64,000 bases of DNA from NCBI GenBank assembly GCA_036172245.1, contig JAYWIR010000075.1, forward strand, positions 1 through 64,000, written 5' to 3'. Under the pieces are notes generated by a model, which ran no database searches, was not told the origin of the DNA, and was given only the letters and a program-made list of their open reading frames with translations. Below are positions 850-64,000 of this stretch, piece after piece. A program made the translations under genes and the position numbers. Source of the stretch: Raillietiella orientalis (lineage: Eukaryota). Each line of letters starts with the position of its first letter. Positions within the stretch are counted from its first letter, which is position 1.

Positions 850-2763
850 ATGGATGTGGAGGCTGCTACTGGCAGTAGAGACTCTACTCCAGATGTCCGC
901 TCCGCCTCTGATTCTTGTGTCTCGCCACCGGCGAGAAGCTTCGCCGCCGTCGTCAAGGCGGCGGCAGCCAACGGAGCACCGCCCGACGAAGCGGTGCTGC
1001 AGGCATATGCGGCCCATGGCTACAAGCCTGCGCTCTGCTATCCGGTGAGTGCTGCGATCTCCGACGGGGTCGGAGAAAATCTATGGGATGAGCTTTTGCG
1101 CGTCGGGGACCGACAGGACGACCTCCTGGCCGTCATGCCGGTTAACGCGCTCGGACACTGGAAGGTGGACTGCGAAGAGGCATCCCTAGTCCAGAGCCTT
1201 CTCCGAACCCCGCTAAATATCTGCGGGAAGGTAGTCGTCCCGTCGGCCATGGACCAGTCGTTCGTGGTCCGATTGTCCGCCGTCCAGGACACGCCCGATC
1301 GCGTGCTCGTCGCTGCACTTAGTGCATTCGCCACGGTGCACGCGCTGTGGAGAGCAGACAATCCGATCAAAAGGATTGCATCTCTTTACAGCAGACTTTC
1401 CATGGCGCGTGTCACCATGGCGGATAGGAGGCAAATGCCTCCGCACTTTCAGGTGGGCGATGCGATCGTCCACCTTAAATTTGCCGGTCAGCGACCGGCC
1501 TGCGGCATTTGCGGTGCAGAGGGCCACCGTCCGTGGTCGTGCCCTTCACGCAACTGCCGCTATTTTAAACACCTCGGCCACTCCATCAAAAAGTGCGCCG
1601 AGCTGAAGAGAAAGCGGCAGGCGAAAAGCCGCCAACAATCTACCCCGTCCGCGCCGAAAGGATCCCCCGTTGTGCCACGGGAGAAATCGGGCGCGAAGGG
1701 TGGGGCATCTTCGAGTGGCGGTTTCGCGAAAAAGGGCGCGGTTGCTTCAGGGAAGCCACCATCCCAGACAGCCGCGCAGACGGTAAAGATGCCACGTCGC
1801 CCTGGGGGCAAATCGCTTCCTTCGAAGCAGCCTAAGAGTGCGGGCACGTACTCAATCAAGGCTGCTGAACCGTCCGCGTTCGCTTGCGCGTCCAGCGGAG
1901 CACACGGGAAACCGTGCGCGGTAACCCTCGGAGCTGCCTCTGAACGGCAGTCTCCTCTTACGGCGGTGGAGATCACGTCTTCCACGCCGAAGTCACGAGC
2001 AGCGAAGGCTGCAATAGCGTCTCGCGGGACGACGGCAATGACCGCCGTTTCGCCCGCATCGGCTAAGGAGCAGGTGCAGTGCGTAACGGGGACGGAGCCG
2101 TCTCCCGCCGCTAGCGCGAAACGTGAGCCGGCATCTTCGACCAAACAACTGAGGGAGGCGTCGGCCTCCCAGGAGGGCGTCCCCGACGCGGGCTGGAGTC
2201 GCGTCTCCAGGACGCCCACAAAGGGGAAGAAGAAGGTTGACCCTTCAATATTCCCCATCCTTAAGGTGGGTGGGAGGCAAAAGAGAAGCACGGCGAAGAA
2301 GGTGCGTACCCAGGTACGCACTACGGCTGCCTGCTCTGTCTCTGTCGCTTTGCGCGAGAGAGCGGCTGCGGAAGCCAAAGCTCCGGAAGCTGCGTTGGCG
2401 ACTGCGATGACCCCGGCGCGGGCAGGGCAATCCTCCATCTGCCGAAACAAAGAGAGACTGGCAAAACCTCAGTCTCGCGCCAGGCACTCAGACTCCGAGG
2501 TGGAGTCCGAGTGCAAACAAATGGAGCGCGCATCCCGGGGTAAGCTGGTAGCGCGCCGGGCTCAAGTGCGAAAGCACGAGCCTGTTGCCGGATGCGGTTC
2601 CGGTTCCTGCACGGAGACCGAGGCGATGATCCTCGTCTCCCAAAACTCAGCTGGGCGCGATGTGGCGGGGAACGGGAGCGATTCCGCTTCAGAATCCGCT
2701 CTCCTACCAGCTGACTTCTCGCCGGACGGTGCGAGGAGCACGCCGTCATGTCCACAGCAGTGA
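850..2763 (+). CDS. LINE ORF1 (gag-like; CCHC knuckle CGICGAEGHRPWSC plus a degenerate second knuckle; long Ala/Lys/Ser-rich tail)
   Basis: Open frame 790-2763, first ATG at 850; RSFAAVV motif shared with the other ORF1s; ends in TGATG overlapping ORF2. Confidence 0.85.
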   Translation: MDVEAATGSRDSTPDVRSASDSCVSPPARSFAAVVKAAAANGAPPDEAVLQAYAAHGYKPALCYPVSAAISDGVGENLWDELLRVGDRQDDLLAVMPVNALGHWKVDCEEASLVQSLLRTPLNICGKVVVPSAMDQSFVVRLSAVQDTPDRVLVAALSAFATVHALWRADNPIKRIASLYSRLSMARVTMADRRQMPPHFQVGDAIVHLKFAGQRPACGICGAEGHRPWSCPSRNCRYFKHLGHSIKKCAELKRKRQAKSRQQSTPSAPKGSPVVPREKSGAKGGASSSGGFAKKGAVASGKPPSQTAAQTVKMPRRPGGKSLPSKQPKSAGTYSIKAAEPSAFACASSGAHGKPCAVTLGAASERQSPLTAVEITSSTPKSRAAKAAIASRGTTAMTAVSPASAKEQVQCVTGTEPSPAASAKREPASSTKQLREASASQEGVPDAGWSRVSRTPTKGKKKVDPSIFPILKVGGRQKRSTAKKVRTQVRTTAACSVSVALRERAAAEAKAPEAALATAMTPARAGQSSICRNKERLAKPQSRARHSDSEVESECKQMERASRGKLVARRAQVRKHEPVAGCGSGSCTETEAMILVSQNSAGRDVAGNGSDSASESALLPADFSPDGARSTPSCPQQ

Positions 2764-5700
2764 TGCGTGGACTCGCGTCCGCTCGTCGCGTCAGCGTGGC
2801 CTGTTGGAATGTCAACGGGCTACGTGATGCTGACAAAAGGCGGACGGTAGCCAAAGCTTTGCGCGCGTTCGATCTGGTGCTGCTGCAGAACATACATAGC
2901 ATCTCGGAACGGCAGGCATCGGATCTGGAAGAGCGCGCGGGCGGAACGCTACACTGGCGGCAAGGCTCCACGCACACGTGCGGAGTCGCGTTCCTTGTCC
3001 GAAGCAGGGTGGCGGAGGCGGTGCGGAACGTTTGTTTTGACGAGGAAGGTCGTGTGGGCCAACTTGTCCTCAAGTGGTCCGAATCGATCGACCTGTTCGT
3101 TACGAACATCTACGCGCCGAGTGGCGGCCGGCATTACGCCCTGCGACTTGCATTCCTGGGTGGCCTGCGCAGCCGCTGGCTCGCTGATTCCGGCCCTAAC
3201 GTGGCGCACCTCCTTGCAGGAGACTTCAACGTCCACCTGCTAACAGAGGAGAGATGCCGCTTGAGGGAGAAGAAACTGGTGAGCGAGGTATGCGCGTCCG
3301 TGCGCGTGCAAAACTTGTTTGCTGGTGAGCCCGGGATGGAGAGATCGCCGGACCATGCGTTCCTCGATGAACACCTGCTCTCACGAGTAGGTCGGAGAGG
3401 GCGCCTGCTGTCCGCGATTTCGGATCATCCGAGACTAGATTTCGAGCTCCTTCCGCCTGGCAAAGGGCCTCCAATGAATGTCTGGAGGCTGCCGGCCGAC
3501 TGGCTTAGCAATTCGGAGGCAAGGGAGCATTTTCGCCAACATTTCCGGGGCTTCGCCATCCGTGAACTCGAGGACTGGGACCATCTGAAAAGATCGGTCC
3601 GCGAGTTCTGCTGCCGGTTCCTCTTGCACCTGCTACCCCGCGGCTTCAAGGAGGGTGTCGCGAACAGCAGATCCTATCTGCAGGCGCGTACCTTCTCCCG
3701 ATGTCCGGACGTCCGGCGTTTGGCGGAGTACAAGGCCAGGGCCGAGCGCCAGGTTTAGCAGTCTGGAGCGGCTTGTCTGCTGGATGACGCTGGCCAGGAA
3801 TGCTCGGCTGCAGCCGAAGTACACCGCGTAGTCAAGCGCTACTACTCCTCGTTGTACGCGGAGGAGCCCACGGAACGCAGTCTCTCCGAGCTGCTTCTTC
3901 CGACGGGTAACCCTGCTATCGACGAGGAGGAACGCGCCAGATTGGTTTGGCCCTTCACGGCGGAAGAAGTATCTTCCTCCATAGCGGGCCTGAAGAGGCG
4001 TAAGGCGCTTGGGGAGGATGGCCTGCCCGCGGAGTTCTTTCAGTGCTTCGCGGCGGAGCTCGTCCCCCTGGTGCTATGCCTTTCCTCGCTAATGCGTGAG
4101 ACGGGAGATGTTCCCGCTTCTTTCCGCTCAAAAAAGGTGCGGCTCCTGCCGGAAGGCGGTGATTTGCGCCACCTCAGCAACTGGCGTTTGATCACCTTTG
4201 TGAATTCGGACGTCAAGTTGTTCTCCAAGCTATGGGTCGCGCGGCTGGGGAGAATCGCTGAGTCCTTGGTAAGTCTGGAGCAGACGTATGCTGTTCCGGG
4301 CGGTCCATGGACGTGAATCTCTTCTTCGCGCGAACATGGTTCGAGTTGCAGCAGCGCGTGGCGCAGCAGAGCCAGGCAGCCTAAATCGCCGCTGCCAAAG
4401 GTAAGCGGCGGTGTTCAAGGCACGATGGAACGCCGGGAGCCTTAGCGGTCGCCGTCGATCTCTGCAAAGCGTTCGACAGCGTAAACCAGGACCTTCTTCT
4501 GGAGCTTCTGGGACGCCTAGGCCTCCCGACGCACCTCATTGCCTACTTGCGCTCCTGCTGGCGCCACGCTTTATGCTGTATCTCTTCCAGCGTGTGCCAC
4601 GTGTACGGCGTCCCCATACGGCGGAATATCAGGCAGGGAGACAGCTTAAGCCCCCTGCTCTTTAGCATCTTCTTTGAGTTGGTGCTGAGTGCGTACAGGC
4701 TGACGCTGGCCAACCTACCGAGCTCCTGCCCGGGAACACCGGCCGTAGCCGCCTATGCTGACGACCTTCTCCTGCTGCTGCCCATGTCCACCCCGGCGTC
4801 CAGCCTCGAGGACTTCTTCGAGCTCATTCGTCGGGGAGCGGGCCCGAGCGTCAAAAGGACGAAATCAACCGTTGTACCGGTTGGCTCTACGTGGGAGGGG
4901 CAGTCCGACTGGATCCGCCTGAAGATCCCCACGGGCAGTTGCTTGAAGTACCTCGGCGTTCCCTTGGGCGCCTTCTATCCAGCAAAAGCGTGGTCGGACT
5001 GCCTTCACAAGGCCGAGACTGCTCTGGGACCGTTCCAAGGCGGCAGGTTTCTCCTGTCGGAACGGGCCTTCGTGTGGAACATTTTCGTTGCCCCCCTCCT
5101 CCGTCCCCTCTTTTTTGTTTGTCCCCCTCCCTACTCGGCTAAGCGCCGGGCGCAACGCCTTTTGCGTAACGCCCTGTGGGGACCGGCGAGGTCCAGGATA
5201 CGCCTGAAGGACTTGGCGGCTCCTCGGCGGGATGCAGGATTGGGCATGCTGACGCTGGAGCGGATCGGACTGCTAGTGCAGTTCCGCATGCTGGCACTTT
5301 GTGCGCAGCTCTGGACTACTCCCTGGTGTGCTCCAGCGCGGCTTCTGTTGCGGCGCTGCACGGGTGGCGACGGACTGCGTTCGTTGCATCTGCGCACGGA
5401 ACGCGCCCAGAGAGGATTCGGCTTCCCTTTGAAGCAGCTCGCCACGCTTCTGGGAAAGCATGAGTGGATCTCCTGCCGGCCGACGAACTTCAACGCCTGG
5501 AGGCAGGAAGCCTTATCGTTCTGGGCAGCGCAACAGGATGTGTTCCATTTGGAACTCCGTTGCGTGAAACTTTCCCCATACCGTCAAATGGGGAAAGTGC
5601 TGGAAGACTTGGACCGGTGGACACGCCTAGCCGCTACGCCACTCGCCGAAGCACTGTGTGCACTGATGGTGCGAGATGACAGTGACCTGCCGGCGAGGTG

Positions 5701-38430: not shown

Positions 38431-41314
38431 CAGTGCAGACGTGTTTTCCCGTCTCTCCATGCCCGCGATCGAGCATCTTTGTGCCTGCGTTTTCGCCCGC
38501 ACTTTTGTGTTTCTGTGAAGTAGTTAAAGCAGCGTTGTGCAACATGGCCAATTCTCAGAATAGTGTGGAGGAGCAAGCCACTAAATCCACTTCCAATGGA
38601 CTGGAAGCGGCCGCATCCTCCGTGACGGTTTCCTCGCCTTCGGTGAGGAGCTACGCCGCCGTTACCTCCCAAAGACCAGGACCCTGCGATGCGGAGTTGC
38701 AGGCTTATGTGGCATCCGGCTACATGCCCGCACTCCGTTATAAGGTCAGTGGGCCCCTTAACGGGAGGACCGGGCGTGAGCTCAACGATGAGCTCGTCCG
38801 GATCGGCGTTCGGGAGGAGGAGCTCCTTGCCATCATGCCTGCGGGCAGGATGGAATACACAAAGATACGGTGCAAAAACGCGGCACTTGTGCAGCGTCTT
38901 CGTACTCCGTTGTCCATCGGTGGCAAGGAAGTCCTGCCTTCCGTGATGGACGACTCGTTTGTCGTCCAATTGTGCGACATCGAGCCGGAAATCTCCGACC
39001 GCGATGTCGCAAGCTGCTGGCGAAGTTCGCCACCGTGCACGCTCTGTGGAAGACACCAAATTCTCTAAGGGATTTCCCCTCTGTCTACATTGGACAAGCC
39101 TCCGCGCGGATCACCGTCGCGAACAGGCGTGTTGTGCCTGAGCAGCTGCAGGTGAACGGCACAGTCGTTCACCTGTGGTTCATAGGCCAGACTCGCGCGT
39201 GCGAGCAGTGCGGCAAGGAAGGGCCAAGAATTAAGGAATGTCCCACCCCGAAATGCCGCTACTGCAAAGAAACCGAGCACGAAATCAAAAAGTACCCGGT
39301 ACTTGCGAAAAAAAGGGCAGCAGCGGAACTTCGTCGAGTCCAAGAGACCGAAGCACGAAAAGCCGCTGCACCCAAGAAAAAACCCGGTTCGCGGAGACTT
39401 GGCAGAAGAGCCAAGCAATACGCGACTAGGAAGCAAGCATTCCTGCTCGTAACGCTCCGAAAGGGCGAGATCACGGCAGGGAAGCCAATTAAAAAAGGGC
39501 GCGAATGTGCGACGCTTGTCATCCCCGCCGTCGCTGCCGAACTCGGGAGCACCTCCGAGACGAGAGTCAGAAAATCTCTGGAAAAACCTAGACCAAAAGG
39601 TAGGCAAGCAGGAAGATCGCAACAGGGCGAGCACTTCCTGAGCCATTCCGTTGTTCCTCCAGAGTTCCCCAGAGCCCCAATGTAATTCAGGGCCCTCTGC
39701 GAAGGCTACAAACGCCGTAAAATGCAGCGGCGCATTGCGCAAGAGCACTCTGCAGGCAGTCGCCCCAACGCCGACTCGGAAGCAACTGAGCAATCTCTCG
39801 ACTGCCAAGAAGGTGAATCCGTTGCAGTCTTTCGAAGGCGTAACGAAAGCAACGCCCTAGAGGCTGCAATGGAAACCGCGGAGGTTTCCGCGACTTCTGA
39901 CACGGAAGCCTCCGAAAATCGTGAAGGCTAATGGAAGGTTGTGGAGAGGAGAAAAGAAAAATTTCCAAACAAAGGTTCGCAATCTCCATCCCTGAGTCCT
40001 TCCAAGGCAAAGAACAGTCGTGTGAATAGAAAAACACGCGCGGCGGGTCCCTCTGTCTTGCATAAAGCCAGCGCCGTCGACGCGTGCAAGTCCGCCTCCG
40101 TAACCGCCGAACAGACGCGATCAGGTGGAAGCAGACGCACGATGATCGCGCGAGCATCAGACTCCGTAAAGGAGTCCGATAACGCAGCTGAACGACGCGT
40201 TACTCGCGCCGGAGCCAGCGCCCGCAGGGCTGAAGCCCTCAGGCGTGGCACACTCGCGGTGGAACGGCTAGTGCTAACCCTCGAACCAACAGGTTCTGCA
40301 CCCGGGGAGGAGCACTCAATTACGCGCAGCACGGTGGAGGCCGGTGCCGACCGCACCCTCCAGCCCGTCGTGCTGCTTACTGCCCGCTCGCCGGGTGAGA
40401 CGAGCACCACGGCCTTGCTTTCCCAGCCGTGATGAGGCAATCGCGTCTTCTCGTCGTGTTGCCGTGGCGTGCTGGAACGTCAACGGTCTCCAACACGACG
40501 AGAAGAGGCGACTAGGGGCTAACGCTCTCAACGCCTTCGACTTGACGCTCCTGCAGGAGATTCACAGCATCTCCGACGAGCAGGCTGCGAGATCGAACGG
40601 CGCGCGGGCGGAAGGCTACATTATAGGTGCAGCGTCGCACGTACGTGTGGCGTCGCTTTCCTCGTACGAGGAACTTTGGTGGGAGCGGTGCGCAGAGTTA
40701 GCTTCGACACGGAAGGCCGAGTGGGACAGCTTGTACGCAAGTGGTTCGACTCGATCGACCTTGTCGTAACGAACGTGTACACGCCGAGCGGCGCTGGGCA
40801 ATGGGCAGAAAGGATTGAGTTCCTCGGTACCGTTCGGAGCCAGTGGCTCACTCGTTCTCACTCTACTGTGGCGTATCTCATTGCGCGGGACTTTAACGTC
40901 CATCTGCTGACCGAGAATAGCGCACACAAAAGGGAAAAGTTGCTAGCGGAAGAGATGTGCGCGTCCGTGCACGCGTGCCACTTGTTCGCTAACGACCCTG
41001 ATATGGCGACGTCGCCGGACCATGTTTTCCTTGATGAACACTTGCACTGTCGAGTGAGTCGGAGAGGTCCCATGCCGTGCGTGCTTTCCGAACATAGCAG
41101 GCTCGAGTTTGAGTTGCTCCTTCCAGGCAAGGGGCCTTCAAACTGTGTATGGAGGATGCCGGCAGACTGGCTTAGCCGCCCGCAGGCAACGGAGCATTTT
41201 CGCCAGTACCTCCGCGGGTTCGCCACAGGTGTACTCTCGGACTAAGACGATCTGGAAAGATCGGTCAGCGAGTTCTGCTGCCGCTTTCCCTTGCACCAGC
41301 TTCCGCGAGGCTTT
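38431..41314 (+). mobile_element. LINE family D, 5' end, ORF1 (ATG 38544, disrupted) and endonuclease part of ORF2
   Basis: AGACGTGTTTT at 38437; RSYAAV; CEQCGKEG; TGATG at 40430; WNVNGL; cut by B' at about 41315. Confidence 0.88.
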
Positions 41315-43440: not shown

Positions 43441-45443
43441 CTCGGTGCTCCTCGTGCCAGGAAATCTCCCCCAGTACAAGCGTCGTGTGGTTCGGTGGTA
43501 GATCAGGCGGCGATGCCTGACGCAACCACCAGGGATGGCCAGAGAACAGCGGCAACGCCGCCCCCAGAGGCGATGGAGGTGGGGGCATCCGCCCCCACAG
43601 AATCAATCCCCGCTGCAGCGCGGGCGTGGAGCGCCGTTGTGTCGGCGCCATCGCCTACAGCCGCGGCGGAATTGTCGGCCTATGTAGAGGAGGGCTACAA
43701 CCCCTCATTGTTCTACAAGGTAGGCAATCTATATTCTTTAGAGAGCGCGCGCGCCTTCTAAAAGGGCATGCACGCTCTCGATGTGAAAGAGGAGGAGCTC
43801 AGCGCTATGATCATTCGCAGCAGGGGTCAGTACGTTGAGGTCATCTGCAAACAAGCAGAGCTGGCCCAACGACTGCTTAAAACCCCCGTTGTGATGGGGA
43901 CCCGCAGGCTCCTCCCCACTACGGCGGACCGCAGCATTGTGGTCCACCTGTTAGGCGTAACCGCGCGAATGCGCAAAGAACAGGTTCGCGCCGCTCTGGA
44001 ACAGTTTGGAACCGTCCACGCGCAGTGGACGAAAGTTAGTCCTTTCGAGGACTACACGGAGCTGCAACACGGCCTCACGGCTGCGCGCGTGACCGTTCGG
44101 GAGGGCTGCACCCTACCCCACAAACTGGTGGTCGAAGGCGAAACCGTCGACCTCTGGTATGTGGGGAAGCCGAAATACTGCGGCTTCTGCAATACGTCGG
44201 GCCACCTCAAAAAGAGGTGCCCAACGTGCAGTGCCAAGTATGCGGCACAATGGGTCACACGAGGGAGGTGTGCCCAAAAGCAGCAGTGCGGGTGGTTTCC
44301 AAGAGAAACCTTAAAAAACGCGCCCGGCTGCTGCAGAAAAAGCTGGCGGCGGAAGCTGCCGCGAAGGCTGTGCCACCCGCGCCCAAGGCCCAGGCCGCAC
44401 CCGAGACTTCAGCGAACAACGCCGAACAAGTAGAGGGAACTAGCCAGGAGCCTGGGTGGTAGGTGGCTACGGCCAAAAAATCAAAGAAGTAGAGGAGATT
44501 GGAGAAAAAAATCGCCTACCAACAGAACAAGAAAGAGCAGGGTAGCACGATAATTAAAGAGTACAGCGTCGTCGTCGAACGCGTTCCCGATGTTGCCGAA
44601 CGCTGCCAGAAAGAACTCGCCCCTACCGACGACCTCCCCTCTGTTGACTTTGTCAACAGCGAGGGGAGCGAGCCGGCGGCGGCGTCCGTCATCGACACCA
44701 CCATCGATGACGTAGCCTTCGCGCGAGCTGCGGAGGAACTGGCAGCCTCGTTGCAGCCAGAACCCTCCAAGGCTGGCAAGAAGGCCGTAAGGCGTCCGGC
44801 CTCCCCTCAAGAGTCTCCCACTTCCGACTCCGAGGTAGAGACCGGAAGCGCAGCCTCCGTTTCCACGGCACCGCGCAAGAAGGCTGGACGTAATTCCACA
44901 AAGCAAAGGAGGTTCGTCTCCCCCGTCGAAGGGGAAGAGATGGCTTCCGCAAGCGAGGGTGCCATGAGCGTGGGAAACTATCAAGACCCGTCGCTCGAGA
45001 GACTCCCAAGCGCGGACACGGAAGGGATGCAAGGGGTGGAGGCCGATCAGTGCCTCAGGTGCCTGAGAAGGCCTACACCTTCATGGACATCCCGCCCGCC
45101 TCGCAAGAGACGGGCACCCCCACACCTTAATCTTCCCAGCAGTAATGCCGAAAATCTCCTTCTGCCGTCGTCTGCGCATCGCCGTTTGAAACGTGAACGG
45201 CATGACAGACGCCAGCAGGAGACGAGACATGGCCGCCCTTCTGGAGTCCTACGACCTTGCGCTGCTGCAGGAGATCCACGTGATCTCTGCAGAACAAGCG
45301 CAAGAGATCGAACGGATCTCCGAAGGGCGGCTGTGGTACAGGTGTGGGAGACCGAAAAGTTGCGGTGTCGCCTACCTACTTCGGCCAGCCGTCGAGGCTG
45401 CGGCTAGGGGCGTGCGGTTCGACGATTACGGTCGTGTCGGCCA
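43417..45443 (+). mobile_element. LINE family A copy A1, ORF1 (ATG 43513, disrupted) and start of ORF2
   Basis: GGACGTG at 43430; CCHC knuckle; TAATG at 45143; carries empty B and E target sites. Confidence 0.92.
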
Positions 45444-48947: not shown

Positions 48948-51265
48948 GCGGCCAGTAGGAGGACGTGTTTTTCCTTCACTCCCCAAAGAGTAGTAGGACA
49001 GCGCTTTTTCTTCTGTGTGGTGTTTTGTGTACATCGTCGGTGTCCAATGGCCACGACGCCAGAGGACACCGCGATGGAGGTGGGAGTGGGGGAGGCTAGT
49101 TCTCCCCCACAGCCTACTGGAGCAGGGGCAGCCGCCCCGGAATCATCCCCGGCCACGCCGAGGACATGGAGCGCCATGGTGGCCGCGCCCAGCGCAGAAG
49201 CCATGGCGGAGATGGCCGCATACAAGGCCTCCGGGTACAAGCCGTCGCTTGTGTACCAGGTAGGCAACTTGTTCGACGGCCGGACAGCGCGCGCCTTCAG
49301 CAAAGCGTTGAAGGACGCGAATGTTACAGAGAAGGATCTGGACGGCCTCTCCGTCCTCAGCGGCGGGCAGCGGGTCGAGGTGGTCTGCAAAGATGTCACC
49401 TTGGCTCACCGCCTAATTCATGCGCCGCTGAACGTAGACGGCCGCAAGATCCTGCCAGTATCTATGGACCGCTCCGTGGTGGTCCACATGACTGGCATCA
49501 CCAGCCGCATGACGCGGTCAGCGGTTGGTGAGGAATTACGGAAGTACGGTGAGGTGCACGCACTGTGGCCGAAACCCTCCATTTTCGACGGCTTCGATAG
49601 CCTTTTTGGTGGGCAGGCTGCAGCGCGGGTCACCGTACGGGAGAATTGTGGGCTTCCCCACAGACTACAGGTGGCGCAAGAAAACGTCGACCTGTGGTAT
49701 GTAGGGAAGCCCCGGTATTGCGGGCATTGTGATACCGTGGGACACCTACGTAAAAGGTGTCCCAAAATACAATGCCATTTGTGCGGGGAGCGGGGCCACG
49801 TTCGGCGCGTGTGTCCCAAACGCCCCACCCCGGTTCCCCCTGCCGCGAAAAAAGCGCAGGGGACACGTGCTTCAAAGGTCTCTAGACCTAAAGTAGAAAA
49901 GGGCCAGCACAAGCTGCCAACACCTCAACCTCCGGCGCGTAAGCCGGAGGATAAACCTTCTGAAACGGTGGAAGGCGAAGAGGGATGGCAGCTTGTAGAG
50001 GCCCGAAAGCCGAGGAAACTCCCACCCGCGGAGAGCAAAGAGCGCAAGACGGCCGGTAAGCCGAAAAAACCCGGTCCGCGCTCGAAAACTTTGCGCGAGT
50101 GCACGGTGGCACTGGAACGAATCGTCGTTCCCGAGATTGCCACCCGGAGCGTCGATCCTCCCCTTGCCTTTTCCGCTGCGCCCGAGGCTCGCAACGGCGT
50201 ACCCTCTGTTTGCACAGAGGGTGAGCCGCGCGACATAGCGGCGGTCGAAGCCGCGCACGCCGCGTTCGCGCAGGCGGCGGAGGAGCTCGCAGTCACGCTG
50301 GCCGAGCGTGAGAACCCCTCGCGCAAGGCCGTGCGAAGGCCGGCTCCGGCGAGGAAGGCCCCCAAAGGTGAGTTAGACCTGGGGGCCGGAAGCACATCCT
50401 CCTCCTCGGAGGCACCCCCCAGAAAGTCGGGACGCAAGTCCCAGAAGCCCAGGAGGCGCCTCCCCTCCACCAGCGAGGAGGAGAAGACGGAAGCCGTCGC
50501 CAGCGTGGGAAATTCGGAGGAGGAATTCCCACGCTCGGAAGCCGTCGATGCGGCCACCCCCATGGAGGAGGGTGAACAGGGGATGAAGTCCCCCCTGCAG
50601 GCGCCGACCCTGAACAGCCCGCCCCCATGGAGGAGGGCGAACAGGTAGGCGCGACTCCACCTGCGGGTGATCCGGCCGACGCGCCGGCACCGATGGTGGA
50701 GGGGGACCAGGTGCCTTCAGCACCTGACCCCCCTGCTCCACCTAGCGTCCCGCCCCAGCAGGTGGCGGACGCCGCACTGCCATCTTCCCAGGAGTAACAC
50801 CTGGGCTCGCCAGTCGCCGTCGGATTCGCGCGGCCTGTTGGAATGTCAACGGGCTGCGCGACGACGGTCACAGGCGAGATACAGCCGACACCCTGCGGGA
50901 GTTCGACCTGGCCCTGTTGCAGGAGATCCACGTGATCACCGCGGCAGACGTCCAGGAGATCGAGACGATCGCGGGGGGTCGGCTGTACTGGCAATGCGGC
51001 ATCCGCAACACCTGCGGGGTCGCGTTCTTCGTGAAGCCGGCCATCGACGCTGCCGTGAAGGGCGTGCGCGTCGATGACGACGGTCGGGTCGGTCAGCTGA
51101 CTCTCGGCTGGTCGGACTCGATCGATCTGATCGTCACGAATGTGTACGCCCCAACCGGTCAAAAGGGATACAGCAACCGTACCAGGCTGCTTGAATCCTT
51201 GAAGCGCGACTGGCTGGCGAACACGAGCGTGCGGAAGGCTCACCTGATAGCGGGAGATTTCAATC
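48948..51265 (+). mobile_element. LINE family B full-length copy, left part (ORF1 ATG 49047; endonuclease up to GDFN)
   Basis: GGACGTG at 48961; CGHC..GH..C and CHLC..GH..C knuckles; resumes at 57173. Confidence 0.92.
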
Positions 51266-51342: not shown

Positions 51343-53266
51343 ATGTCGACCCAACTTGAAGCTACTGAAGTTGGAGGAACAGCATCCGGATCTGCAATCG
51401 CGGAACCGACGGCCGCCTCCACTTCGTCTTTCTCGCCAATGGAGAGGAGTTTTGCTGACGTTGCTGCCACAGCAGCCGTCAAAGGGAAACCACTCGACGA
51501 GTCGGAGGTGCGGGCATACGTAGCCCAAGGCTATAGACCTGCTCTCCGATATAAGGTGAGTGGTTTTCTTTCTGCGCGCGACGGGAATCAGTTCAACGAT
51601 GAACTGACGCGTGTTGGCGTGCGGGAGGAGGACCTTCTCGCCATTATGCCCGTAAAAGACATGGGCTATTTCAAGGTGCGTTGCAAAGACGCTGCACTTG
51701 TGCAACGTTTGCTGCGCACCCCGTTGTCGATCCGTGGCCAGAAGGTCTTCCCGGCCGCCATGGACGACTCATTTGTGGCGGAGATTTTCGACATCGAGTC
51801 GGAAATCTCCGATTTTGATATTCGGAACGCGTTGGCGAAATTCGCCACGGTCCATGCGCTGTGGAGGGTGCGTAGCAACCTCAAGGACTTCCCGTCCATA
51901 CACAGCGGAGTCGCTGGAGTCCGGCTTACAATGCCGGACCGCCGTCTGCTGCCCACCAAACTACAGGTGAATGACACGGTCGTTCACCTGTGGTTCGTGG
52001 GCAAAGTAAAAACGTGCGAGCAATGCGGGAAGGAGGGGCATTGTTTGGATAAATGCCCCTCTGGAAAATGCCGTTATTGCAAACTATCCGGGCACCAATT
52101 GAAAAATTGCCCGGATCTTTTGCGAAAAAAGGCAACCGCGGAGCTCCATTTTAAAAAACAAAGCGCGGATAAAAAGAAAAAATCTGCGAAAAACCTGGAG
52201 ACCCCACGGCAGAAATTCGGTAAAAACGCGAGGCGGAATGTCGCCCCAAAGCAGCAGGAAACCTCGCACGCGAAGCCCTGCGCACCCCCTCTCGCGGCAG
52301 GGGAGCCGCAAAAGAAAGGGTGCGGGGAATCCGGGGCAATGGTAAGTCCCCCTAGGCGCAATAGCTGTCCTTCCCCAGCACGCCCGGCTCTCTCGGAGTT
52401 CGAGCAACCGGCGGGGACGTCAATGGACAACGGCGGTAAGGACACTTCCAGTACCGTCAGATCCATTCCTTCACCTCCTGCAGTGGCTGAGAAGCCCAAA
52501 TCGGGTAAGAAGGGTTGTGCCGTGTCGACTTCGAAAGTCGGCAAAAAAAAAATCCGCGTCGCGATCCAACACCGCGAAAGCGGACAAAAATCTCACGCCG
52601 TCGCAGTCGGAGAGCAAGCTCTCGACTGGCGCGGATGCCATGCCAACGAAGGGATTAAAAGCCCTTCCGAAAGCAGCGTCCATGACGAGCGTGTCGGAGC
52701 CATCGAAAGGGCTCCCGTCCAAAGACGCGGATGGCTTCAAAGATGGCCATGGAGTACAATCTCCATTTACGGCGCCACGCGAAGTGAGGAACCGTAATGA
52801 AGTAAAGAAGACTTCAGCAAAGGTCCCTCGTGCAACTGCGCGTGAGCACGCTGAAAACGCGCGCGCCGGGAAAGCAGCCGTCACCAAAAGCGATGCCCTG
52901 GTGACGGAAAACGAAAACAGGACAGCTGTCAATCCAGCAGAACCTGTCACTGCTTCGCGGAAGGCCGAAATCCGATCGAACATGCGCCGGTCGGACTCCG
53001 AAATGGATGCCGTTCCGATCACCGAGACGAGGACAACTCGTTCGAAAGCGTGTGCGCGCCGATCAAAAGTAGGCAGCCAGGCAACGCTCGCCGCGAAGCA
53101 ACGCGAAGTCTCCACGAAACCCGACGGGGTTCAGCCTGGCGTGGAGGCATTACATGCATGCAGCACGACAGAGGACGGTGGCGACTGTCCCCTCCAGCCA
53201 GTCGTGCTGCTCGCAGTCTGCTCGCCGGATAAAGCGAGCAAAAAGCCGCCACCTTCCCAGCAGTAA
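51343..53266 (+). CDS. Family C ORF1 (two CCHC knuckles), with one +1 frameshift probably at the A10 run 52543-52552
   Basis: CEQCGKEGHCLDKC and CRYCKLSGHQLKNC; the downstream frame ends at the TAATG overlap. Confidence 0.82.
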
Positions 53267-56200
53267 TGCGGGGAATCGCGTCTTCTCGTCGTCTGTCCGT
53301 AACGTGTTGGAACGTGAACGGACTGCAGAACGACGAGAAGAGGAGATTAGTAGCCAACGCCCTGCGCCCCTTCGACCTCGCGCTCCTGCAGGAGATTCAC
53401 GTAATCTCCGACGAGCCGGCAGCCGAAATCGAGGAGCGCGCAGGCGGAACGCTACATTGGCGGTGCGGCGGCGCACACACGTGCGGCGTCGCGTTCCTCG
53501 TAAGAGGAAAAATGGCGGAAGCGGTGCGTAGTGTTCGTTTCGATGACAACGGACGGATAGGCCAGCTTGTCATCAAGTGGTCCGAGTCCATCGATCTCGT
53601 CGTTACGAACGTCTACGCGCCGAGTGGCTCTCGCTACCTCGAAGACAGAGTAGCTTTCTTTGGTGAGGTGCAGAGCCACTGGCTCAACAACTCCGGTTTC
53701 CAAGTGGCGCACCTCGTCGCTGGGGACTTCAACGTCCGCCTGCTCTCCGACGATTGGAGCCGCCCGAGGAAGCGCGCGCTGCCCATCGAGATGTGCGCGT
53801 CCGTGCACGCCGCCAACTTGATGGTCAGCGAACCTGGAATGGAAAGATCGCTCGATCACGTTTTCCTCGATGAAAACCTGCATTCGCGTGTGGGCAGGAG
53901 AGGAAGATTGTTGACTAGGCTTTCTGACCACCACAGGTTGGAGTTTGAGATCCTTCCGCCAGGCAGGGGGCCTCCGTTGCAAAACTGGAGGATGCAGGCG
54001 GATTGGCTTAGCCAACCGGAGGCTGCGGAGCATCTACGTGGATACCTCCGAGGCTTTGCCATTCAAGAACTTGCGGACTGGGACGATCTCAAAAGATCAG
54101 TCCGCGAGTTCTGCTGCCAATTCCCCTTGCACCGGCTTCCACGCGGTTTCGGAGAGGGCGTGGCCAACAGTAGAGACTTTCTGCAGGCCCGCACGTTTTC
54201 GAGACGCGCGGATGTCGGGCGTCTCGCAGAGTACAAGGCGAGGGCCGAGCGCCAGGTCTGGCAGTCCGGAGCAGCATGCCTGTTGGACGACAAAGGCCAG
54301 GAATGTTCGGCCCCAGCCGAAGTACGCCGCATTGTGAGACGCTACTACTCCTCGCTCTACGCGGATTCCCCGACGGAGGATATTCTTTCTGAGATACTCC
54401 TGTCTCAGGATGCTCGTGTTGTCGGCGAGGAGGACCGCGAACGTCTCGACGAGCCCTTCACGGCGGATGAATTTTCGTCCGCCATCGCTGGGCTGAAGAG
54501 ACGAAAGGCGCCAGGCGAGGATGGGCTCCCTGCAGAGTTTTATCAGTGCTTTGCAGTGGAGCTCATTCCTTTGATGCTGATACTCGCGACGCTGATGAGT
54601 GAATCCGGGAATGTCCCTGATTCCTTCCGCTCAGCGAAGGTGCGTCTCCTGCCGAAAGGCGGAGACTTGCGCCAACTTAACAACTGGCGTCCGATCACCT
54701 TGGTGAACTCGGACGTCAAGTTGTTTTCCAAGCTGTGGGTCGCGCGGCTAGGAAGAATCGCGGAATCTGTGGTGAGCCCGGAACAAACCTACGCGATTCC
54801 GGGACGATCCATGGAGGCGAACATCCTTTTCGCGCGTACATGGATGCAGCTGCAGGAAGTTGTGGCGCAGCAAAGCCAGGCTGCTGCGAAAGTCACTGCC
54901 GCAGGCAAAAAGAACAGGCGCCGACGGCAGGAGGGAACGCCAGGTGCCTTGGCGGTTGCGGTCGATCTCCACAAGGCGTTCGACTGCGTAAACCAGAAGC
55001 TGCTTTTGGAGCTTATGGAACGCCTTGGGTTCCCGGCGCAACTCCTGCTGTATTTGCGCGCGTGCTGGCGCCACGCGCTAACCTGCATCACTTTTAGCGG
55101 CTGCCGCGTGTATGGTATTCCCGTTCGTAGGGGCATCCGACAGGGCGACAGCTTAAGCCCGTTGCTCTTCAGCATCTTCTTTGAGTTGGTGCTAAGAGCA
55201 TACAGGCTGACGCTGTCTCACTTGCCAAGCTCCTGCCCGGGAACGCCTGCCGTGGCCGCCTACGCTGATGACCTGCTTCTTCTGCTCCCCATGTCCACCC
55301 CGGCGTCCAGTGTCGAGGATTTCTTCGACCTGATTCGTCGGGGAGCTGGCGTGAGCGTGAACAGAGAGAAGAGCGTGGTCGTTCCTGTGGGTACGTCGTG
55401 GGAGGGGCAGTCCGACTGGATCCGCCTGGGGATCCCCACGGGCGGGTACTTTAAGTACCTCGGCGTTCCGTTGGGCGCTTTCGGCGCAGCCGAAGCGTGG
55501 GCGGACTGTCTTCAGAAAGCAGAGTTGGCCATCAGCCCGTTCTTTAACGGCAAGTTTACCTTGCAGGAACGGGCGACTATTTGGAACACCTTTGTGGCCC
55601 CTCTCCTCCGTCCCCTGTTTTTTGTTTTGGACCCCCCCTATGCGGCAAAACAGCGGGCTAAGCGCCTGCTCAGGAACGCTCTCTGGGGTCCGGCGAGATC
55701 CAGGATCCGCCTTAAAGATTTGTCAGCTCCGCGTCGGGATGCTGGTTTGGGTATCCTGACAATGGAGCGAATCGGACTGCAGGTGCAGTTCCGACTGCTG
55801 GCACTGTGTGCCCAGCTATGGACATCCCCCCTGTGTGTGCCAGCTCGCATTCTCCTGCGGAGATGCGCCGGCAGCGGAGGATTTCTCTCGCTTTTGCCGG
55901 GCACTCAATACAGGAAGCGGGGTTTCGGATTTCCATTGCGGCAGTTGACCGCACTTCTGGAAGCACACTCTTGGATCTCCTGCCGCCCAATGAACTTTGA
56001 AGCTTGGCGGCAGGAGTCTGTTGAATCCTGGGCGGCGTTCCAAGGAATACGCCCTGAAGATCTTCGCCCCCTGCGCCAATTTTTTCCACGATCCTTGGAA
56101 GAAGTACTGCGGGACGAGGTGAAGTTTTCTACCCTGGCTGCCACGCCTCTTGCCGCAGCGCTGTCTGCCCTCAGAGCAAGAAACGACAGTTACCAACCGG

Positions 56201-56859
56201 CGAGGTGGGAGGTTTCCTGCACGATAGCGGGAAGAACCAAACTCCTTGGCACCTGGAAGACAAGTGAGTTGGCGGACGCCGCCACTCCTCGTGCTACTGC
56301 AAAGGGACTTCTCCGGTGGGCAGAAGAACTTGCTGTCACCCCCGAAGAACTTGTAGTCCCTCCACAGTGTATGGACAGTTCGCTGCTCCCCCTTGCTTGG
56401 AAACAAGCCGTGCTGCTTTTCGTTCACTGGGGTTTTCAGTGCAACGAGCGTTGGCATCGTGACTCCGGGGGACTTGCGTCTGCGAACTGCGTTCGGTGCG
56501 GATCGACGGAGTCGATTCCGCACCTACTTCTGGACTGCGGTGTCCTACAAGGACTGTGGCGTAGGCTGGCAACAGCACTATTGCATCCCGTGGACACCTC
56601 AAGAGACTTGCTGCGACGATTCTTCACGCCGAGCGGGCTTTCAGTAAGCGCAAGGATTGCAACCATCGGTTGCATACGCGCGATAGTTTCCGTCCGCCAG
56701 GCGTTGGTACTCAACGGACAGTACCAAGAGGTAATCAGCAAAGCATCCTTCTACATGGGAGCATCCGCTAGATGGCCTCATTTGACAGAGGAGACAAAGA
56801 GGAATCTCGCCGCAATACACCGCCGGTTTACACACCCTCATCAGCGGCCAACCCGGTGA
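53266..56859 (+). CDS. Family C ORF2, intact 1197-aa APE endonuclease / reverse transcriptase / Zn-finger protein
   Basis: WNVNGL, QE, YAP, GDFN, DH, SDH; KAPGEDG, WRPITL, DLHKAFD, QGDSLSP, YADD, YLG; CVRC..H...C. Confidence 0.96.
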   Translation: MRGIASSRRLSVTCWNVNGLQNDEKRRLVANALRPFDLALLQEIHVISDEPAAEIEERAGGTLHWRCGGAHTCGVAFLVRGKMAEAVRSVRFDDNGRIGQLVIKWSESIDLVVTNVYAPSGSRYLEDRVAFFGEVQSHWLNNSGFQVAHLVAGDFNVRLLSDDWSRPRKRALPIEMCASVHAANLMVSEPGMERSLDHVFLDENLHSRVGRRGRLLTRLSDHHRLEFEILPPGRGPPLQNWRMQADWLSQPEAAEHLRGYLRGFAIQELADWDDLKRSVREFCCQFPLHRLPRGFGEGVANSRDFLQARTFSRRADVGRLAEYKARAERQVWQSGAACLLDDKGQECSAPAEVRRIVRRYYSSLYADSPTEDILSEILLSQDARVVGEEDRERLDEPFTADEFSSAIAGLKRRKAPGEDGLPAEFYQCFAVELIPLMLILATLMSESGNVPDSFRSAKVRLLPKGGDLRQLNNWRPITLVNSDVKLFSKLWVARLGRIAESVVSPEQTYAIPGRSMEANILFARTWMQLQEVVAQQSQAAAKVTAAGKKNRRRRQEGTPGALAVAVDLHKAFDCVNQKLLLELMERLGFPAQLLLYLRACWRHALTCITFSGCRVYGIPVRRGIRQGDSLSPLLFSIFFELVLRAYRLTLSHLPSSCPGTPAVAAYADDLLLLLPMSTPASSVEDFFDLIRRGAGVSVNREKSVVVPVGTSWEGQSDWIRLGIPTGGYFKYLGVPLGAFGAAEAWADCLQKAELAISPFFNGKFTLQERATIWNTFVAPLLRPLFFVLDPPYAAKQRAKRLLRNALWGPARSRIRLKDLSAPRRDAGLGILTMERIGLQVQFRLLALCAQLWTSPLCVPARILLRRCAGSGGFLSLLPGTQYRKRGFGFPLRQLTALLEAHSWISCRPMNFEAWRQESVESWAAFQGIRPEDLRPLRQFFPRSLEEVLRDEVKFSTLAATPLAAALSALRARNDSYQPARWEVSCTIAGRTKLLGTWKTSELADAATPRATAKGLLRWAEELAVTPEELVVPPQCMDSSLLPLAWKQAVLLFVHWGFQCNERWHRDSGGLASANCVRCGSTESIPHLLLDCGVLQGLWRRLATALLHPVDTSRDLLRRFFTPSGLSVSARIATIGCIRAIVSVRQALVLNGQYQEVISKASFYMGASARWPHLTEETKRNLAAIHRRFTHPHQRPTR

Positions 56860-57142: not shown

Positions 57143-57170
57143 AATAAACGCCCCGGCGTGACCGGGTGAT
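57143..57170 (+). other. Conserved LINE 3'-terminal signal AATAAA-CG-C-CCCGG-N5-CCGGG-TG
   Basis: Found at seven element ends in the window (one degraded). Confidence 0.85.
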
Positions 57171-57172
57171 AA

Positions 57173-60100: not shown

Positions 60101-60526
60101 AGCCATCGCAGCCTTGTGCTGTGTCCGTGGCATCGTGGCTGCATGGAGCGACGCCAATAACGAAGGAGTGGGTCCACACGCGAGGGATGTCATCCCATAC
60201 GCCCAACGCTTCATGCGGAGAGCTGCCGGATGGCCCCAACTGGGGAATATGCAGACTGACCTCGAGGGCTTCGTTCGACGGATGGGCCCTCCTCACAGCG
60301 TTCAGTGATCCCTTCCCTGCCCTCCAACTTCTTTTTGTCTGTTTATGTTTTTTATTTTTATTTTTGTTTTATCCCCATCCCCCTTCGCTGCTGAGGAACG
60401 CTACGCTGGGCTGCGTCCCGGCGTCCCGGCAGGTCCAGTGCATATGGCCGTGAGCGGGGCCTTGTACCGCGGATGTAGAGTTGTTTTTTTAAAAAAATGA
60501 ACGCCCCGGGCGTACCCGGGTGTAAA
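57173..60526 (+). mobile_element. LINE family B, right part (ORF2 with one frameshift near 59590, stop 60308, 3' UTR)
   Basis: FN-LRLITGEP continues the GDFN split by C; terminal hairpin at 60505-60520. Confidence 0.93.
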
Positions 60527-62368
60527 CCTCCAAGGCTGGCAAAAAGGCAGTGAGGCGTCCGGCCTCCACCGAGGAGTCGGTAACTTCCGACCCCGAAGCG
60601 CAGGCCGGAAACCAAGTTTCCATCTCCGCGGCACCCCGCCGGAAGGCTGGAAGGAAGTCCAGCAAACCTTGGAAAGCCCCTCTCTAGGCCGAAGGCGTGG
60701 AGATGACTTCCGACTGCGAGGGTGCCATCAGCGTGGGAGAATCCCACGAATCGTCACCCGAGAGACCACCACGCACAGACACGGAGGAGATGGAGGGGGT
60801 TGAAGCCGGAAAGGTACCCAAGGTGCCTGAGGAGGCTGAAACCCTAATGGTCATCTCACCCGCCTCGGAAGAGGCGAGTTCCCCCACACCGTCATCTTCC
60901 CGGCAGTAATGCCGGGAATCTCCTCCCGCCGTCGTCTGCGTATCGCCGTTTGGAACGTGAACGGGATGATAGACGCCGGCAGGAGACAAGACATGGCCGC
61001 CATGCTAGGATCGTTCGACCTTGTGCTGCTGCAGGAGATCCATGTGATCTCTGCAGAACAAGCGCAGGAGATCGAACGCATCTACGGAGGGCGGCTGTGG
61101 TATCGGTGTGGAACATCGAGAAGTTGTGGTGTCGCCTACCTGCTTCGGCCCGCCATCGAGGCCGCCGCCCGTGGAGTTCGGTTCGACGATCACGGTCGTG
61201 TCGGCCAGCTGACTCTCAGCTGGTCCGACTCGATCGACCTGATCGTTACGAACGTTTACGCCCCGAGCGGAGCGGACCTGACGAACAGGAGGCCCAAGAA
61301 ATAATTTTTCCTTGCCCTCCATCGCGACTGGTTGACCGAGGCAGGCGTGCGGAATGCCCATCTGGTTGCAGGCTATTTTGAAGTTCGTCTGAAACCGGAT
61401 GGGCCGAATCACGAGCGTGACCTGGTCAACGAGGTGTGCGCGGTTGTACACACTTGTAATTTGTTGGCCAGTGTACCAGGGATGGAGGACAACATCGATC
61501 ACGTGTTCCTTGACGAGCACCTGTGCACTCGTGTGGGCAGGCGCTGCAAGTTGCCGTGCGAGTTTTCCGATCATCGACCAATCGTGATTGAAATCCATCC
61601 GCGCGACAGGGGCCCCCCCTCGTCAGCGTGGCGTTTGCCAGGGGACTGGCTAAAGCTCCCGGACGCGACGGAACATCTCCGCACGTTTATACGGAGCTTT
61701 AGGATGCAGACACTTCAGGATTGGGACCGCTTCAAACGGTGGGTCCAGGAGTTCTGCGACGAGTTCCCTCGGCACCGCCTACCTTCGGGATTTGGGGACG
61801 GGGTACTTAACGAACGAGCCTATCTACAGGCTCGCCGTTACACCAGGACCCCCGACATCCGCAGGCTGGCGGAATACAAAGCGGGAGCCGAAAGGCAAGC
61901 CTGGCAGTCAGGATCGGCCAGCTTGCTGGACGATCAGGGCCAGGAGCATTCGGCACCCGCTCAGATCCGCGGTCTGCTGCGGCGTTTTTACTCCTCCCTG
62001 TACGCAAAAACGCCTTCTGAGCGGGATTTCTCACGAATCTTGCTTCCGAAAGGCGCTCCTGAGATCGGGGAAGAGGAGAAAAAGTCCCTTGACGAGTCTT
62101 TCACGATGGGCGAGATCTTCTCGGCCATCGGAAAGCTCAAGAGGCGAAAGGCTCCAGGGGAGGACGGCCTGTCCGCGGAGTTTTATCATACTTTCGCGGC
62201 TGAGCTAACCCCCCTGGTACATCAACTCACCTTGCTGCTACGCGAGGCAGGTGACGTTCCCGCCTCGTTTCGTTCGGCAAAGGTGCGGCTTCTCCCTAAG
62301 GGAGGAGATCTGAGGAGCATGAACAACTGGCGTCCCATCACAATAGTGAATGCGGACGCCAAGTTGAT
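60527..62368 (+). mobile_element. LINE family A copy A2, right part (ORF1 end, ORF2 from 60909)
   Basis: cctccaaggctggc.. continues A ORF1 as in 44764-44800; cut by G after WRPITIVNADAKL. Confidence 0.9.
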
Positions 62369-64000
62369 AGTTGCCACCCGGTCACGCCGGGGCGTTTATT
62401 AAAAATTCTCTTTGATTCGTGGTACGAGGCCCCACTACGGCCAACTCAACTGGACCTGCCGGGTCGCCGGTACGCAGACCGGCGCGACTCTCCTCGGCAG
62501 CGGAAGGGGGTGGGGGAAAAAACAAAAAGAAAAATAAAACATAAAAACAAAAAGATTTAGGAGGATTGGGGAGGGATCACTGACCACTGGGAGGAGGGTC
62601 CATCCTTCGCAGGATGCCCTCGAGGTCCGTCCGTATAATTCCCAAGTGGGGCCATCTGGTCACAATCCGCAGGTAGCGGACTGCAAGTACGACTGCATCC
62701 CTGTCGTGGCTCGGTCTTCCGACGTTGCTCCAGCACGTCACAATCCCGCGTACGCAGCAAAGTGCAGCCAGGGTAGCGGCTGGACGCAGGGCATCATGCA
62801 CGAACAGAAGCCGAAAAACGTCTCTGGGCTGGCTGCCCTCCTGGATTCGTAGGGAGGCACGAAGACGTTCCCACAGGGGTCGGAGGGCAGCACAATCAAC
62901 AAGGAGGTGGGGGAGAGTTTCCCGTTCCCCACACCTGATGCAGGTAGGATCTACTCGACCCCTGGTCCAGTGGTGGCGGCGTGCGTTGCAGGGTAGACCC
63001 CAATGCAACAACAGAAGCGCCGACTCCTGCCACTTCAGGGGGAGGATCCTAGAACCAATTAATACCGGAACCACTTCAGGTCATCCGGCTGGATGCCGAG
63101 TAGCTCGCCCCATCTCTGAAGTCCTCTTGGCTGGACACTGGGGGTACTGGCGTCCGCCAGTTCACCCGTGGCCCAGCCGCTGATCAACTTCTCCTTGCCT
63201 GCGATGCGGCAGGAGACTTGCCACCTAGGCTTGCGGCTGCTGGAGAGCGCCCTCCTCAGGAAGGGCATCGCCGTAGCTAGGGGGGTTGTCTCTGCCCACG
63301 TGCTTCTCGCGGGACACTGGAGTATCTTCCGCAGAGTGCAGCGGGAATAGGCGCCGCGTCGCAGGCAGTTCCACATCTCTCCGTTCTTCTGGTTTATCTT
63401 CGCCCACGTGCCAGCTGTCTCCTGCAGGCATGCGGAGGAGTTGGCGGGGCTGCATACCATCCAGCCGTTTTCCTTAGCCAGAGTTGCCATGCGTCCCAGG
63501 AGAAGTCCGCATCTCTTGATCTTCCTGCCACGGCACAGAAGATAGGACGCGAGACCCTCCGTCCCGGATACACGGCTGGCAAGGAGTCGGGCCGGAACGC
63601 ACCAAGGGGTGCTCCATAACTTCGCTGCGATGGCGAGGGTTCGCCACCGCAGCTGAATCTCTACTCGCTCCATCGTCAAGAGGCCGAGACCGCCATCCCG
63701 ACGTGGAGCACACAAGTCCTTCACCGGGACTCGGGGCCTCCCTCTTCCCCAAAGGGCAATTCTCAGGAGGTCCTTTGTCCGTTTTTTCAACTCTCTGGGG
63801 ACGGGGCAAACAAAAAGCAGGGGGCGGAGGATAGGAGCCGCGAACGCGTTCCATACCGCGGCCCGTTCCGGAAGAAGAAACTTGTCTTCCAGAAACGGGC
63901 CGATCGCCGTTTCCACTTTTTGGAGGCAGCCGGACCACGCTTTTGCAGGGGAGTAGTCCCGCAACGGCACACCAAGGTACTTCAAGCACCTCGCCGAGGG
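62369..64000 (-). mobile_element. LINE family G (B-related), 3' part of ORF2 and 3' end; continues out of the window
   Basis: KYLG..CIRC..H...C, stop at 62577; AATAAA and hairpin at 62400-62377. Confidence 0.9.

Follow-up and report, generated by a model that had tools for sequence, protein, structure and literature searches.

The ORF1 stop codon and the ORF2 start codon overlap in several of the LINE copies at this locus, within sequence that can fold into a hairpin, which raises the question of how ORF2 is translated from such a junction. In the review sections available, LINE ORF2 translation is still called open (PMC11485995, PMC3894237). A first-pass annotation had proposed that the hairpin at the overlap is a conserved RNA element that sets ORF2 output; RNA structure with some bearing on ORF2 translation is the likeliest reading of the junctions collected here, but the hairpin named in that proposal is the least conserved of three.

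Elements, junctions and representatives

The window (the whole stretch analysed, the first 64 kb of contig C75 in a 210-Mb genome) holds nested GC-rich LINE fragments that surround an AT-rich island. The copy designated A2 (60524..62375, plus strand), recognized by self-alignment and a Pfam endonuclease match, is a 5'-truncated, dead fragment of an L1/Tx1-like LINE comprising the ORF1 tail, the junction, and the start of ORF2, with an ORF2 stop at 61302 (plus strand) and an inverted element that cuts the copy from about 62375. The C copy has an intact ORF2 of 1197 codons (53266..56859, plus strand) in which Pfam identifies an N-terminal APE endonuclease (PF03372) and a reverse transcriptase (PF00078), the arrangement of an APE-type non-LTR element. 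The nearest database proteins to this ORF2, the best among 8000 candidates scored, are 22–29% identical and many of them carry PF13966; no close relative of the element was found among these candidates, the best identity being 28–29%. The label L1/Tx1-like is provisional and is based on the domain order and on features characteristic of the clade. No Rfam family matched the 64-kb window at the gathering score.

Several other features of the window and of related copies were recorded. Elements lack a poly(A) tail and end with AATAAA and ~25 nt of GC-rich sequence that is complementary to itself (57143-57175, plus strand; 62400, minus strand; 60500, plus strand). A U-rich tract lies 40–100 nt before the first ORF1 ATG in L284, L285, L286, and L079, ending with CAG in F1, and could be a 5'-leader acceptor. 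Two B copies (window position 51265; L284, minus strand, 3246) share their last nucleotide, which lies 469 nt past the start position, directly behind the GDFN codons. The near-identical foreign sequence that follows runs into a C element, a pattern that either site-specific insertion or duplication of a B-C unit would explain. The AT-rich island contains a host ORF of 748 aa (29954-32200, minus strand) with no Pfam match; its Atlas look-alikes (0.92–0.93), mostly animal clusters, include an arthropod hypothetical cluster and WDFY4-like armadillo proteins, which is a weak lead.

Junctions were collected genome-wide with a WNVNG pattern that represents the first endonuclease strand (1524 matches, compared with 2 for a reversed control). 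A protein filter was passed by 219 distinct junctions, while 42 more matches (filter failures or matches near locus ends) were kept apart; the sample is enriched for the A2, B1, and E1 families, each of which was directly searched. From the 219, 31 ingroup and 8 outgroup representatives were picked by hand, 15 of the 31 backed by at least three copies and the remainder by one or two. Signed positions count from the start position, defined as the opening base of the codon that lies 14 codons ahead of the motif's W and reads ATG when an ATG is present. The B1 copies are 97–99% identical to the B copy in the window and this lineage therefore spread recently.

The stop/start hairpin is variable

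The A2 hairpin at the overlap (HP2; 60897..60918, plus strand, with the ORF1 stop TAA at 60907-60909 and the ORF2 ATG at 60909-60911) is strong, a 22-nt structure of -16.3 kcal/mol with a z of -5.4 that none of 200 shuffles equalled, and its perfect form is the commonest state in the family (12/26 copies). All six junction strings listed by the first-pass annotation are present where it placed them, among them that of the C copy (HP2 at 53254..53275, plus strand; TAA at 53264-53266, ATG at 53266) and that of the D copy (40386..40434, plus strand; TGA at 40430-40432, ATG at 40432), which has one base missing just past the ATG. The GNRA tetraloop ascribed to the B copy was misread, as HP2 there (50787..50805, plus strand; TAA at 50795-50797) has 6 bp and a loop of 7 nt, and AUG is absent, ACA replacing ATG at 50797-50799 and in 34/35 of the B1 copies. 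The E stem exists as described (junction at 2748..2772, plus strand; HP2 at 2750-2772 in a bulged register, TGA at 2761-2763, ATG at 2763), but one A-U pair of the window copy is G-U in the commonest string of the family (19/30 copies). A second in-frame ATG lies at 2748, and the ORF1 stop of the E1 and E2 lineages is flanked by two in-frame ATGs five codons apart (2748 and 2763 in the window). In the A1 copy (45094..45147, plus strand), the loop TAA had been taken for the ORF1 stop, whereas the first stop is the TAA at 45128-45130, 15 nt before the TAATG (second TAA at 45143, ATG at 45145).

Amongst the 31 representatives, 59% of 279 cells pair when HP2 is counted in the A2 register. A GNRA loop closed by two pairs occurs in 10/31 and holds the first ORF1 stop in 8/31. 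The changes previously interpreted as compensatory are register shifts, with the A, B, and E stems pairing in three registers, and the 12 double-change cells exceed shuffles (1/500) but not slid registers (4–15 cells; 11, 12, and 15 at three of the six slides). HP2 reaches significance in 1/31 representatives when residues in the ORF2 frame are fixed to either side, and in 8/31 when its upstream half is resampled under the ORF1 frame; it is likely that GC-rich codons explain much of HP2. Six F representatives (F1-F6) have neither a stop-start overlap nor a TTCCC tract, possessing an A/C-rich spacer that folds at -1.6 to -5.2 kcal/mol. The best reading of HP2 is that it is an accessory in some lineages, the middle and dispensable one of three hairpins.

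The position and form of the stop vary as well. Most representatives have their first ORF1 stop at -2, E2 at -8, F1-F5 at -11, and A1 and F6 at -17, and a stop lies no more than 17 nt before the start position in at least 30/31, the decayed copies D2 and H3 also having an earlier stop. The UAAUG overlap occurs in A2, C, G1, and H, UGAUG in D1 and E1, and neither in B, K, and F1-F6; UAAUG is not kept across the clade, 14/31 representatives lacking AUG. A purine lying three bases ahead of the TTC codon, in Kozak-like fashion, does not hold in the F lineages, and pairing of the loop with downstream sequence as a pseudoknot is possible by inspection in A2 and B, though it is not common to the lineages.

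Flanking hairpins are better conserved

Two further hairpins, HP1 within the ORF1 tail and HP3 within the start of ORF2, flank the junction and are better conserved than HP2. HP1 (plus strand; A2, 60858..60879; B, 50745..50772; C, 53219..53240; E, 2716..2737; A1, 45094-45115; D, 40386-40405) has one broken pair in the A2 window copy and 9 bp in the representative L003. Its core is CCGCC/GGCGG-like, with 6–12 nt between the core arms, and in 31/31 representatives the end of its 3' arm falls between -28 and -32. The distance from HP1 to the start position is thus kept at 28–32 nt although the ORF1 stop shifts from -2 to -17, and the 5' arm occupies all three phases of ORF1; few indels could be the cause of the fixed position. 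MAFFT failed to align HP1 across lineages, and it was counted through motif-anchored arms and in the F group alone. By the former, 142/155 core cells pair, a count matched by none of 5000 arm shuffles; in the ungapped F-group alignment, 86% of 110 cells pair and double changes occur in 4/10 pairs, counts well above slid controls and only moderately above shuffles (11–70 of 500). The 31 representatives are mutually related and hand-picked, and covariation amongst them rests on few independent events. HP1 exceeds synonymous resampling in 17/31 representatives and is the clear peak of the last 200 nt of ORF1 (20/31 compared with at most 8/31 elsewhere in these 200 nt), ranking 6 to 21 among 77–102 windows in a scan of the whole ORF1.

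HP3 (plus strand; A2, 60923..60985; B, 50818..50865, -32.7 kcal/mol; C, 53287-53334; E, 2784..2831, -29.8 kcal/mol) overlies the codons for WNVNG, the first strand of the endonuclease, and is a portion of a longer irregular stem that starts nearer to the start position. Counted in a register taken from the B1 fold, a choice that favours HP3, 376/496 cells pair compared with 283 ± 8 under a synonymous null. The 16 double-change cells (0/500 shuffles) come largely from one lineage, and the RNAalifold consensus, in the A2 register, is weak (-0.7 kcal/mol). HP3 is the peak of the first 160 nt of ORF2 (21/31 compared with at most 13 elsewhere in these 160 nt) and ranks 11/147, 22/146, and 2/65 among windows of whole ORF2s. 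By eye, its energies in AUG-less lineages are apparently no stronger than in lineages with AUG.

The window cassettes fold with z of -3.6 to -5.1, and all the cassettes folded as three hairpins have z of -3.6 to -5.8; the F1 cassette folds without the middle hairpin. In the outgroup families, a stop, a short C-rich spacer, and an ATG are accompanied by an unrelated 8-bp hairpin that begins about 22 nt past the ATG and, in copy-by-copy folds (8 copies), by an unrelated hairpin about 35–55 nt before it that an alignment fold did not recover. The C-rich box of the outgroup junctions L180, L189, L190, L089, L094, L095, L096, and L090 lies directly before the ATG, near the place of the ingroup TTCCC. 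Equally strong hairpins, beyond the synonymous expectation, are present at +1413 and +1893 of ORF2 in C and D; the whole-ORF scan also found a hairpin at -1301 of ORF1 that recurs in D, B, and F1, and z averaged over the windows lies below zero throughout (-0.3 to -0.8). Because shared structure occurs at several places along the RNA, the position of a hairpin alone proves no role in translation. Further hairpins at +285 and +189 of ORF2 recur at equal offsets across lineages (C, D, B, and F1 copies).

A few junctions depart from this organization. In L097 (minus strand, 3292) and L166 (plus strand, 1503), homology breaks within or right after HP1, and the upstream part of L097 resembles the 3' end of another element joined in the HP1 loop. 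L184 and L186 belong to a family that has HP1 and lacks the usual stop, with ORF2 broken shortly past WNVNG in both, and are possibly non-autonomous.

Loss of AUG and selection on ORF2

The codon at the start position is ATG in 17/31 representatives and ACA, ACC, ACG, TTG, TCG, AAT, or AAG in 14/31, and at the level of copies it is ATG in 92 and ACA in 69 of 192 in-register junctions. An ORF2 without an AUG occurs in some other LINEs. The first in-frame Met of the B copies is 64–168 codons past the W of the WN motif, beyond the Asn and Glu that we take to be catalytic in APE domains. Across codons -13 to +49, 15 nonsynonymous and 36 synonymous changes separate the five lineage states of B, while private changes in the AUG-less groups number 130 nonsynonymous and 80 synonymous (Fisher p = 3.5e-5), a control that is imperfect as its omega is 0.56–0.68, not 1. 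The endonuclease of the AUG-less B lineages is under purifying selection, which suggests that the ORF2 region is translated without that AUG. The dN/dS in the ORF2 frame is 1.11 just upstream of the start position and 0.47 just downstream. None of the four AUG-less copies fetched at length has an unbroken ORF2, and the breaks are at differing places.

Near-cognate codons are also found at codons -19, -15, -5, and -3 in some B lineages, and one of these could serve as the actual B start. How many times AUG was lost is uncertain because H3, which has ATG, groups among B6 and B7 in a 240-nt tree that is weak at depth. At the start position, ATG has changed to AAG in four separate lineages (L220, L237, L074, L148, L155, and L277), and ACG or GTG occurs with the stop overlap retained in L282, L164, and L166.

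Candidate routes to ORF2 translation

We give about an even chance to the reading, drawn from sequence, that ORF2 is made by termination-reinitiation in which AUG is optional, within a cassette of three hairpins. We infer all of the translation steps, whereas the structures, their conservation, the loss of AUG, and the selection on the endonuclease come from the sequences themselves. A ribosome ending ORF1 would melt HP1 and HP2 and then stop, after which HP1, with its core ending 28–32 nt before the start position, could refold behind it. With HP3 ahead and HP1 behind, the post-termination ribosome may be kept near the stop and may begin ORF2 on or close to the ancestral start position whatever the codon there, presumably tolerating AUG, the near-cognate ACG, TTG, and AAG, and ACA, ACC, TCG, and AAT, which are two bases off. 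Reinitiation tolerant of non-AUG codons remains because frameshifting, splicing, and a TURBS (termination upstream ribosome-binding site) lack required features. The TURBS was rejected: a stop lies close to the start (-2 to -17) in 31/31 representatives, but UGGGA is found between -70 and -5 in 0/31, no complement to the ES7 loop of the host 18S rRNA is conserved (mean duplex z of -0.43), the HP1 core ends 28–32 nt before the start position, and AUG is present in only 17/31. The best 6-mer complement to 18S, common to 10/31, is the HP1 arm itself.

Reinitiation might instead be AUG-independent and also independent of structure, as proposed for human L1, with the hairpins of a generally folded RNA serving packaging, reverse transcription, or stability, which we consider possible if rather unlikely. 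The equal hairpins at shared places (+1413 and +1893 in C and D, -1301 in D, B, and F1) and a mean window z below zero throughout would be expected of such an RNA, but HP1 and HP3 form local peaks near the junction and the outgroup start is also flanked by unrelated hairpins. It is improbable that ORF2 is initiated internally and independently of ORF1 translation, from a small IRES or from an internal promoter whose ORF2 mRNA has a non-AUG start aided by HP3 in the manner of the Sindbis downstream hairpin. The constant distance from HP1 to the start while the ORF1 stop moves would suit internal initiation, and dicistrovirus IRESs, according to the source sections available, begin without AUG (PMC3894237); against it, the ORF1 stop lies no farther than 17 nt from the start position in at least 30/31, the cassette is small, and inspection revealed no conserved pseudoknot.

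The remaining explanations are more remote. That the pyrimidine tract and AG before the stop form a splice or trans-splice acceptor joining an upstream start to ORF2, the alternative raised by the first-pass annotation, is very improbable: an AG at -7, -6, or -4, often as a tandem pair, is present in all 23 non-F representatives and in F7 and F8, but F2-F6, three of them AUG-less, lack AG throughout the 18 nt preceding the start position, and none of 197 ingroup genomic junctions has a spliced appearance; nine are broken no more than 75 nt from the start, and the closest candidate has an antisense ORF2 upstream. We find it hardly credible that a -1 ribosomal frameshift produces an ORF1-ORF2 fusion for which a start codon is unneeded. 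The ORF2 frame is -1, and it stays open over some codons ahead of the ORF1 stop, where F-P-A/G recurs, but a slippery heptamer is missing from the overlap in 29/31 (the two matches are at least 176 nt upstream, in single decayed copies), the overlap is only 3 codons in F1, and the ORF2-frame dN/dS of 1.11 upstream indicates that selection starts only past the start position. Equally hard to credit is that all three hairpins are by-products of GC-rich codons, those for Pro and Gly pairing mutually; the significance of HP2 in just 1/31 with ORF2-frame residues fixed agrees with this, while HP1 and HP3 stand above synonymous nulls and the 5' arm of HP1 shifts reading phase.

A broader claim built on AUG-optional reinitiation is doubtful, namely that a compact arrangement of hairpin, linker, stop/start site, and second hairpin, with no rRNA complement, would be sufficient for post-termination ribosomes to start ORF2 at codons that differ from AUG by two bases (ACA, TCG, or AAT), would have evolved two times, in separate LINE clades of the same genome and out of unrelated sequence, and would have permitted repeated natural loss of AUG. 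If true, it would constitute a new class of reinitiation element and a natural allelic series for LINE ORF2 translation.

Comparison with known systems

SART1, the telomeric LINE of Bombyx mori, couples its ORFs through UAAUG with RNA structure downstream and not upstream, as described in the source sections available (PMC5972666, PMC10275272, PMC3894237). The first-pass annotation was right to name it as a neighbour, as the present elements are likewise bicistronic APE-type LINEs with an overlapping UAAUG or UGAUG in many lineages and structure 3' of the stop, in the form of HP3. They differ in their added upstream hairpin, the loss of AUG in several lineages, a stop up to 17 nt from the start, and their L1/Tx1-like affinity. 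A search of titles and opening lines of abstracts, in which subscription journals are poorly covered, returned no report of a LINE whose ORF1/ORF2 junction has an upstream hairpin.

The caliciviruses and influenza B restart through a TURBS with UGGGA and a 12–23-nt linker (PMC11921876, PMC10275272), and non-AUG restart is known in both (PMC10275272, PMC11921876, PMC2699510), as far as the accessible portions of these papers describe. The LINE junctions resemble a TURBS in having a stem upstream of the stop/start and a linker of little sequence conservation, and are unlike it in their lack of UGGGA and of a conserved ES7 complement, their linker of about 28–31 nt, and their often non-AUG start. 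In Sindbis virus, initiation at CUG requires a stable hairpin located 27 nt past the start, according to the accessible part of the report (PMC5850377); HP3 is similarly a stable coding-region hairpin 20–30 nt past the start, though in Sindbis the start is reached by scanning on a capped subgenomic RNA and is not that of a second cistron.

Human L1 translates ORF2 independently of AUG across a 63-nt spacer and tolerates engineered loss of the AUG; it has a natural AUG, and the review sections available mention no cassette of flanking hairpins (PMC11485995, PMC5972666, PMC2881922). As in human L1, ORF2 is apparently made without AUG after translation of ORF1, but the loss of AUG here is natural and fixed in lineages. 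Where SART1 needs UAAUG and downstream structure and L1 tolerates the loss of AUG, the present clade provides natural variants in one genome, with the start codon in eight states, the stop at four distances, HP2 present or absent, and the flanking hairpins retained.
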